Shown: positions 52,263 to 52,334 of the stretch, one piece after another | How the letters are laid out: each line of letters starts with the position of its first letter | Numbering within the stretch: the first letter of the stretch is position 1 | IMG/VR virus record: IMGVR_UViG_3300045988_051359 | Strand: one strand, 5' to 3' | Length of the DNA stretch: 64,000 nucleotides | Source of the DNA: a virus | The notes under the pieces: model-generated | Databases searched by the model: none | Told to the model about the DNA's origin: nothing | What the model saw: only the letters and a program-made list of their open reading frames with translations | Position numbers and translations under genes: made by a program

Positions 52263-52334
52263 TGCTCCATACAGGATTCAAACCTGTGACACGTAGGTTT
52301 AGGGTCTACTGTTCTATCGCTGAACTAATGGAGC
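52263..52334 (-). tRNA. putative suppressor tRNA (anticodon CTA, reads UAG); C33 and A31·C39 mismatch
   Basis: Acceptor GCTCCAT/ATGGAGC, D-arm GTTC-AGCGATA-GAAC, anticodon arm GTAGA-CCCTAAA-CCTAC, 5-nt variable region, T-arm ACAGG-TTTGAAT-CCTGT. All lengths are standard, which places CTA at positions 34-36. Confidence 0.45.

Follow-up and report, generated by a model that had tools for sequence, protein, structure and literature searches.

A conserved CUA-anticodon tRNA in a phage lineage that uses the standard genetic code

The DNA that we analysed, a stretch of 64,000 nucleotides (nt) from the IMG/VR virus record IMGVR_UViG_3300045988_051359 (hereafter the window), carries at positions 52,263 to 52,334 a tRNA gene whose anticodon, CUA, is complementary to the amber stop codon UAG. 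We conclude with high confidence that this is a real, selected tRNA of the amber-suppressor type in a genome that has not been recoded. The tRNA is under purifying selection with its CUA anticodon fixed, and the phage genome is not TAG-recoded. The tRNA sits in an accessory module to which a ribozyme candidate is linked.

The CUA tRNA and its orthologues

52263..52334, minus strand: tRNA with anticodon CUA, amber-suppressor type (ARAGORN, Rfam RF00005, orthologues V1-V3)

ARAGORN called a tRNA with the anticodon CTA on the minus strand at 52262-52334, and the Rfam tRNA model RF00005 matched 52263-52334 on that strand over model positions 1-71, with 56.8 bits against a gathering score of 29 and a window-wide E of about 1e-9. 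The RNA of 72 nt reads, arm by arm, GCUCCAU UA GUUC AGCGAUA GAAC A GUAGA CCCUAAA CCUAC GUGUC ACAGG UUUGAAU CCUGU AUGGAGC A. Every arm is of standard length, and CUA occupies positions 34-36 of the 7-nt loop CCCUAAA (CC-CUA-AA), a register on which ARAGORN and the Rfam alignment agree. An earlier, sequence-only reading of the window had proposed a tRNA of canonical arm lengths with this anticodon, and both programs bear it out, in the same register; that reading gave no strand, and the loop it quoted corresponds to the minus-strand reading.

Two oddities that it had pointed out, C33 and an A31·C39 mismatch, are real in the cmscan alignment, in which 31·39 is the only pair flagged as non-canonical. 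The window tRNA accordingly lacks U33, and its 7-nt anticodon loop is not closed by a Watson-Crick 31-39 pair. The molecule also has an elbow pair A19-U56, discriminator A73 and G1-C72, and its CCA end is not encoded. Folded as a single sequence, it gave a cloverleaf with an anticodon stem of 4 base pairs (bp) and a 9-nt loop (-20.6 kcal/mol, z = -2.6).

The label tRNA-Pyl that ARAGORN attached to the gene mirrors the CUA anticodon only, and the anatomy rules this identity out. tRNA-Pyl has a 3-nt variable loop, a 6-bp anticodon stem, a small D loop without G18G19 and an atypical T loop, whereas the window tRNA, which shares only the anticodon with it, has a 5-nt variable loop, an anticodon stem of at most 5 bp, a 7-nt D loop and a canonical T loop (UUYGARU). 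None of the scanned proteins neighbouring the CUA tRNA gave a Pyl-related match. With the classical bacterial amber suppressors the window tRNA has more in common, namely the CUA anticodon, the A37-A38 context and a presumed dependence on a host synthetase. Escherichia coli supE tRNA-Gln CUA and Su7 tRNA-Trp CUA, however, are single anticodon mutations of host sense tRNAs that retain U33 and a paired 31-39, while the window tRNA is a phage gene with attenuating features and a CUA that is conserved across lineages.

Orthologues were present in relatives, as the sequence-only reading had suggested checking: we found three variants of the CUA tRNA in 28 viral contigs, all in the same slot between tRNA-Gly and tRNA-Ile. 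V1 is the window lineage (eight identical copies), V2 occurs in 19 contigs and V3 in one contig of 185 kb. Even relatives in which the SPFH protein encoded within the tRNA array is just 69-74% identical still carry the CUA tRNA in this slot. V1 and V2 differ at 23 of 72 positions (up to 32% tRNA divergence), and their neighbouring proteins have diverged by about 30%. All three variants scored well with RF00005 (V2, 62.7 bits; V3, 59.7 bits; V1, 56.8 bits).

The differences between the variants preserve the fold. Across V1-V3, 95.5% of pair cells were standard, and compensatory double changes had occurred in 8 of 22 pairs: 3-70, 10-25, two pairs of the anticodon stem, three of the T stem and the tertiary elbow pair 19-56, which is A-U in V1 and V3 and G-C in V2. 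Only 1 of 500 shuffles equalled the observed value, and six slid controls gave 0-1 pairs each (none from -3 to +2, one at +3). CUA, A37, A38 and C39 are invariant. C32/C33 is confined to V1, with the canonical U32-U33 in V2 and V3; by contrast, 31·39 is mismatched in all three variants (A·C, A·C and C·C), and a mismatch common to all three lineages is a kept feature rather than a sign of decay.

These data bear on the suggestion that the gene is a decaying pseudogene, that is, a sense tRNA (Trp CCA, Gln CUG or Lys CUU) drifting after an anticodon mutation. Such an origin would account for the atypical C33 and A31·C39, it has precedent in the degenerate tRNA-like elements of the same array, and it would fit the loss of the CUA tRNA in two close relatives. 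Against it stand three diverged orthologues in which the cloverleaf and CUA have been kept, eight compensatory pair changes, the invariance of the anticodon and the 3' half of the loop, and Rfam scores of 56.8-62.7 bits. In addition, pattern searches of 2.9 million viral contigs with the anticodon arm left free retrieved neither a homologue with a sense anticodon nor a fourth variant. We therefore reject the pseudogene reading as very improbable. The divergence of the CUA tRNA is mid-range among the sense tRNAs of the array; its flanks cannot be aligned. When it was compared with 217 unique tRNAs of the family, the top matches, about 70% similar, were Trp(CCA), Arg(UCU) and Asn, and no isotype ancestry stood out. 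A Gln ancestry, suggested by D-loop and T-loop motifs shared with the phage tRNA-Gln, was dropped after V2 showed canonical loops.

Genetic code of the phage and of its relatives

The presence of a UAG-reading tRNA had raised the possibility of stop-codon reassignment. We tested for recoding by comparing the coverage by long open reading frames (ORFs) under three alternative stop sets and by tblastn searches with late proteins. In the window (36.2% GC), where the genes under the standard code are all on the minus strand and tightly packed, long ORFs covered 0.78 of the sequence with the standard stops, 0.84 with TAG as sense and 0.82 with TGA as sense. The 67 window genes of at least 100 amino acids (aa) end in TAA (42), TGA (16) or TAG (9), in keeping with the sequence-only reading, which had noted standard stops.

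The analysis was extended with MT835470.1, a 117-kb GenBank sequence from human faeces that overlaps window positions 377-10925 and reaches into the rest of a related genome; a contig with the V2 tRNA encodes a terminase 100% identical to the one in this sequence. TAG ends 4 of its 87 genes of at least 100 aa, making 13 of 154 together with the window, and it is the rarest stop of the lineage. Long ORFs cover 90-100% of the late-gene block of MT835470.1 under the standard code, and reading TAG as sense gained essentially nothing there. We also fetched late loci (terminase, portal, major head protein and tail proteins). In genomes with the identical tRNA, TAG as sense added at most 0.02 to their coverage, and the late proteins of three such contigs contained no in-frame stop in 19,478 aligned residues. 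Some recoded phages encode release factor 2 or a dedicated synthetase; among 30 proteins scanned with PHROGs or Pfam, 20 of them window proteins and 10 encoded by MT835470.1, neither a release factor nor a synthetase turned up. TAG terminates no late gene (0/44, compared with 13/109 other genes; p = 0.02), and the TAG stops of window genes are followed by a further in-frame stop after 0-27 codons (median 3).

To find genes interrupted by TAG, we screened the window, MT835470.1 and 190 family loci (designated by L numbers below) for a single in-frame TAG flanked on either side by 40-50 or more open codons. The window has seven such sites with at least 40 open codons on each side, three on the minus (coding) strand and four on the plus strand. 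The former either fall across tRNA genes or belong to an alternative frame of the SPFH gene, and the latter are antisense. Candidates elsewhere were antisense or alternative frames of intact genes, tRNA overlaps, two adjacent in-frame genes, a GIY-YIG endonuclease inserted ahead of the next gene, or the tail of a mosaic gene bearing all three kinds of stop. In the standard-looking family loci, which total 3.7 Mb, the density of clean TAG-split sites was 0.018 per kb, compared with 0.46 per kb in recoded relatives. The search for TAG-interrupted genes thus yielded nothing credible in the window, MT835470.1 or the sampled late loci, and with TAG ending 9 of 67 window genes and absent from all aligned late residues, stop-codon reassignment is unsupported.

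A genome-wide reassignment of TAG to an amino acid (code 15) might still be hidden in the unsampled remainder of the genome, as the CUA tRNA itself and the recoding of related phages could suggest. We consider this extremely improbable: the 64-kb window, MT835470.1 and the late loci of three carriers together span almost an entire genome, and the excerpted description of the clade to which the phage may belong (PMC12386605) likewise reports no suppression.

One gene is a caveat. A protein of about 800 aa with a glucosaminidase domain (PF01832) is terminated by TAG in L027, of the V1 lineage, with 168 in-frame codons beyond the stop. The L230 protein P0004 has a TGG-encoded Trp at this position, a second TAG-versus-Trp difference lies close by, and the gene is also TAG-terminated in L026. 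These differences would be expected if the suppressor served sparingly in the phage itself, with a few phage UAGs read to give C-terminal extensions or to rescue nonsense variants. However, the same region of L230 also has an in-frame TAA (CAA in L027) and an in-frame TGA. With TAA and TGA variants beside TAG, the region looks like a mosaic gene boundary with no TAG-specific signal, and we regard the glucosaminidase TAG as ambiguous, a caveat rather than evidence for recoding. Every other sense-strand candidate failed inspection, and extensions past the TAG stops of window genes would be short, as their following stops indicate. Sparse self-use is accordingly improbable. The gene lies at 2089-4326 (minus strand) in L027, 7724-10818 in L230 and 2507-4999 (minus strand) in L026. 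Among near-identical genomes, its tail shows nonsense/sense differences involving all three stops, and the downstream domains have been recombined.

Mobile elements have also inserted in core genes of relatives. The terminase gene of L030-L038 and others has an insertion of about 1 kb (the match spans 3271 nt instead of 2274), the major head protein gene of L113 and L134-L136 is broken, with the match ending at residue 413-414, and L098 (15807-16575) has a GIY-YIG homing endonuclease upstream of a conserved 148-aa gene.

Recoded phages do exist nearby, and the earlier pointer to large Bacteroidetes phages was apt. In relatives whose terminases are 42-59% identical (L053, L062, L066, L069, L071, L072, L074, L076 and L081; 29-34% GC), long-ORF coverage rose from 0.2-0.6 to 0.77-0.92 when TAG was read as sense. 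The window lineage is thus a standard-code neighbour of TAG-recoded phages, with which it shares its terminase family. The CUA tRNAs of L062, L069, L076 and L081 are Gln-like and lie near late genes. The suppressors of recoded relatives have a CU-CUA-AA loop, a paired 31-39, U1 and a GGUGUAA D region; two of these tRNAs, which have an extra arm or insertion, measure 90 nt. No ribozyme adjoining them was matched by Rfam.

The comparison extends to the code-15 crAss-like, Lak and other gut phages (Borges et al. 2021/2022; Peters et al. 2022, PMC9523058), which also encode a CUA tRNA and infect standard-code hosts. Their late genes are full of in-frame TAG, whereas the window lineage has none to read. 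The window tRNA also differs from code-15 suppressors in belonging to another sequence family (G1-C72, A73), in its 31·39 mismatch and in its location in an early array.

The window lineage might nevertheless be in a transitional or compatibility state, a standard-code neighbour of recoded relatives that has either gained a suppressor or kept one. The tRNA could be a precursor of recoding (in the order stop depletion, suppressor acquisition, accumulation of in-frame TAG), a relic of a recoded ancestor, or a translator of genes swapped with recoded relatives. The recoded phages at 42-59% terminase identity, with CUA tRNAs of their own, the rarity of TAG as a stop (13 of 154 genes) and the strong mosaicism of the tRNA array and adjacent genes are all consistent with such a state. 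It would also fit the stepwise recoding model of Borges et al. (10.1101/2021.08.26.457843), who describe a standard-code phage with a TGA suppressor. On the other hand, three lineages whose divergence reaches 32% in the tRNA and about 30% in neighbouring proteins have kept the tRNA without gaining in-frame TAG, and an early-stage reading is disputed on like grounds in the excerpted text of PMC12386605. A relic of shared recoding is unsupported, because the CUA tRNA is unlike the Gln-like suppressors of the recoded relatives. Overall, we judge a transitional state unlikely.

The accessory module and the tRNA array

52109..52581, minus strand: variable segment holding the CUA tRNA, a CAU element and a ribozyme candidate (blastn against L174 and L175; tRNA scans)
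52182..52258, minus strand: tRNA-like element with a CAU anticodon (Rfam tRNA model, 20.8 bits, E 0.025, below the gathering score)
52117..52180, minus strand: candidate ribozyme of the hepatitis delta virus (HDV)-like, theta type (Rfam RF02682)

The CUA tRNA is present or absent as part of a variable segment. In L174 and L175, whose neighbouring protein is 97% identical, tRNA-Gly is followed directly by tRNA-Ile, with about 110 nt of unrelated sequence in place of the CUA tRNA. Its absence from two such close relatives means that the tRNA is dispensable in at least some settings. Where it is present, a 153-nt core (52217-52369) is 99-100% identical in contigs with differing flanks. By eye, we noted a hairpin within this core, upstream of the CUA tRNA (52340-52364, minus strand; GGCGGUGC ... 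GCAUUGCC); it needs two G·U pairs and could therefore form only in RNA of the tRNA strand. Its setting is 99-100% identical among V1 contigs.

The CAU element begins 4 nt past the CUA tRNA and comprises an acceptor stem, an anticodon arm (CUAGU CUCAUAA GCUAG) and a T arm, with an AT-rich region of 24 nt in place of a D arm. It is 100% identical between V1 and V3, and the 120-nt downstream flank is 97% identical, the other flanks being unalignable; the V2 lineage has a canonical tRNA-Met(CAU) in its place. In L007, an ORF for a 243-aa HNH endonuclease (L007 3350-4100) lies exactly in the anticodon loop of the element. Despite the intron-like look of this insertion, Rfam gave no match to a group I intron in it.

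The first base of the ribozyme candidate lies 2 nt past the discriminator of the CAU element. RF02682 matched it over its full length (1-74) with 38.1 bits and an E of 1.2e-5, below the gathering score of 44, and it is the only ribozyme match in the 31-kb array. L007 has a match of 37 bits; V3 was not reported at E of at most 0.01. Two compensatory helix changes between V1 and V3 support the candidate. Theta ribozymes abut phage tRNAs and are enriched beside suppressor tRNAs, and 96.4% of the genomes with suppressor-associated theta ribozymes are recoded (PMC10879173). The window resembles these theta ribozyme-tRNA modules of gut Caudoviricetes (Kienbeck et al. 2024, PMC10879173) in having an HDV-like ribozyme at the 3' end of a tRNA-type element and a suppressor in the module. 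It differs from them in that the candidate scores below the gathering threshold and abuts the CAU element rather than the suppressor, and in that the genome is standard-code.

The 27 tRNAs that ARAGORN called in the window are all encoded on the minus strand and are spread from 30.4 to 56.7 kb; to these Rfam adds one tRNA-like match and a transfer-messenger RNA (tmRNA). The exact anticodon-arm sequence of the CUA tRNA was found in eight IMG/VR contigs of up to 182.5 kb (182,517 bp), and the order Tyr-Gly-CUA-Ile-Pro-Cys-Lys is constant in all eight. According to PHROGs, window proteins include a replication and nucleotide-metabolism module with NrdD, Dda-like and other helicases, DNA ligase, RNA ligase, an exonuclease and a PurA/PurZ-like enzyme. 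Pfam matched none of the six ORFs closest to the CUA tRNA, and a search with a neighbouring 572-aa protein retrieved close relatives only.

Other elements of this region are as follows.

58290-58805, minus strand: tmRNA (Rfam, 55.7 bits)
56665-56762, minus strand: RAGATH-34 RNA (86.9 bits, the top non-tRNA match of the window)
54503-54572, minus strand: tRNA-like element (Rfam, 40.6 bits)
45049-47037, minus strand: 662-aa SPFH/Band-7 protein
40445-41599, minus strand: 384-aa adenylosuccinate-synthetase-like protein (phrog_1211, PurZ-type)

The tmRNA was not called by ARAGORN in the window and is called by it in the relative L201 (1805-2292); a tmRNA beside a suppressor tRNA might help to deal with ribosomes that run through stops. 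The 3' end of the RAGATH-34 RNA overlaps the start of tRNA-Pro(AGG) (56598-56669) by 5 nt. The element at 54503-54572 has an abnormal anticodon loop and no ARAGORN call; its counterparts are a 75-nt 'tRNA-Leu(CAA)' without a long variable arm in V2-lineage loci and, in L203, a tRNA for which no anticodon was assigned. The SPFH protein is encoded mid-array and is 56-100% identical across the family. The PurZ-type enzyme might point to 2-aminoadenine (Z) DNA or might simply be a PurA homologue; its gene lies just upstream of tRNA-Gln and ends in TAG, with a second TAG nine codons on. In the close relatives L171, L172 and L176, ARAGORN assigned 'CTA' to another tRNA-like gene (GAACCAGUAGUUCAAUUUCCGGAAGAAC...) that has no counterpart call in the window; this is probably a misregistered odd anticodon loop.

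Possible function and implications

The source phage is quite possibly a gut phage of about 180 kb from the Zeta crAss-like group, with a predicted Bacteroides host, that belongs to the published clade 8 (the 'Echekviridae' proposal; Int J Mol Sci 2025, PMC12386605). In the excerpts of that description, clade 8 has genomes of 164-188 kb with 35.4-36.9% GC, 20-29 tRNAs, predicted Bacteroides hosts and a CTA suppressor tRNA without suppression, for which the authors propose a role in host weakening or counter-defence. The window lineage agrees in GC (36.2%), tRNA number (27-28), the CTA tRNA and the lack of suppression, and a sister contig of 182,517 bp (IMGVR_UViG_3300045988_023864) agrees in size. 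The terminases of genomes with the identical CUA tRNA are about 30% identical to those of Crassvirales (crAss-like phages). Given this fit in size, GC, tRNA number and CTA tRNA, the central phenomenon is already published. Those excerpts contain no mention of C33, the 31·39 mismatch or covariation, nor of absence in close relatives, the CAU element or the ribozyme. What we add is the covariation, the lineage-wide 31·39 mismatch, the V1-only C33, the presence/absence polymorphism and the linkage to the CAU element and ribozyme candidate; the category of the finding is unchanged.

The explanation that we favour overall, if tentatively, is that the CUA tRNA is a functional, maintained, weak amber suppressor of a standard-code phage, aimed at messages other than those of the phage. 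The tRNA would be transcribed with the early-region tRNA array as part of a three-part module (tRNA-CUA, CAU element, ribozyme), and it may be released with a short 3' trailer through RNase P cleavage at the downstream tRNA-like element and self-cleavage of the ribozyme. An enzyme that adds CCA and an aminoacyl-tRNA synthetase of the host would then complete its maturation, and Gln, Trp or Lys would be plausible inserted residues. The mature tRNA would pair with UAG through an anticodon arm that seems built to be inefficient, since no lineage pairs 31 with 39 and the window lineage also has C32/C33. In the extended-anticodon concept, the context of the anticodon arm, including the 31:39 pair and U33, tunes decoding efficiency (reviewed in PMC11231383), and it is on this ground that we infer an attenuated suppressor.

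The CUA tRNA is no decoder of phage genes, because phage frames contain no UAG. The phage could tolerate a suppressor since its late genes are never terminated by UAG and its UAG-ended early genes soon meet another stop. From the lack of in-frame UAG, the lack of late UAG stops and the nearness of backup stops, it follows that the likeliest beneficiary process lies outside phage decoding. The targets would be UAG stops of other messages in the infected cell, those of host genes, including defence genes, and possibly of co-infecting phages. A function directed at the host, in the form of readthrough of its messages, was likewise put forward by the authors of PMC12386605; it is possible, and we hold it with less assurance than the overall explanation.

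Several observations weigh against a weak suppressor with targets outside the phage. TAG is still the terminator of 13% of window genes of at least 100 aa. The absence of TAG from late-gene ends may reflect only a preference for TAA (39/44). Backup stops are no nearer after TAG than after TGA or TAA, and the genome therefore shows no specific adaptation to a suppressor. The tRNA is missing from two close relatives, and C33 together with the broken 31·39 could mean that decoding activity is very slight. Finally, expression, charging, weak suppression and host-directed benefit are all steps that we infer.

The anticodon arm also invites readings outside canonical decoding. If 31·39 is unpaired, the loop is effectively 9 nt (N-YY-CUA-AA-C), and the tRNA might decode beyond the plain UAG triplet, act as a decoy for a host anticodon nuclease, or be a processing or regulatory tRNA-like RNA. 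The mismatch in all three lineages, C33 in the window lineage and the predicted fold with a 4-bp stem and 9-nt loop would suit such roles, and the phage RNA ligase and near-complete tRNA set are as expected where hosts attack tRNAs. But in all other respects the molecule is a canonical elongator tRNA whose elbow pair has been maintained, and in V2 and V3 residue 33 is the standard U and A37-A38 gives the setting typical of amber suppressors. Signs of frameshift sites or nuclease targets were neither looked for nor encountered. We consider a non-canonical role distinctly improbable.

A bolder reading, which we regard as rather unlikely though worth stating, takes the CUA tRNA, CAU element and ribozyme together as a mobile suppressor cassette, kept weak by selection and used by standard-code phages against other genomes, or else as a code-compatibility device. 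If the former were true, the module would promote readthrough of host UAG stops, including those of defence genes, or would interfere with TAG-recoded competitors; if the latter, it would ease gene exchange between standard-code and TAG-recoded Zeta crAss-like phages. The tRNA would then be a translational weapon or a bridge, acting outside the phage's own code.

A suppressor tRNA in a phage is usually taken to signal an alternative code, and an annotation pipeline may change the code on seeing one. Here, as in the published clade 8, a suppressor has been selected in genomes that never use its codon as sense; thus, such a tRNA alone is no evidence of recoding, and since it is kept without sense use of the codon, the phage must gain something else from it. 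With recoded and non-recoded relatives side by side, the family is a natural system for studying how changes of the genetic code start or stop. The same family is suited to asking whether suppressor tRNAs are tools of host takeover. The linked ribozyme candidate and the attenuated anticodon arm provide concrete experimental handles.

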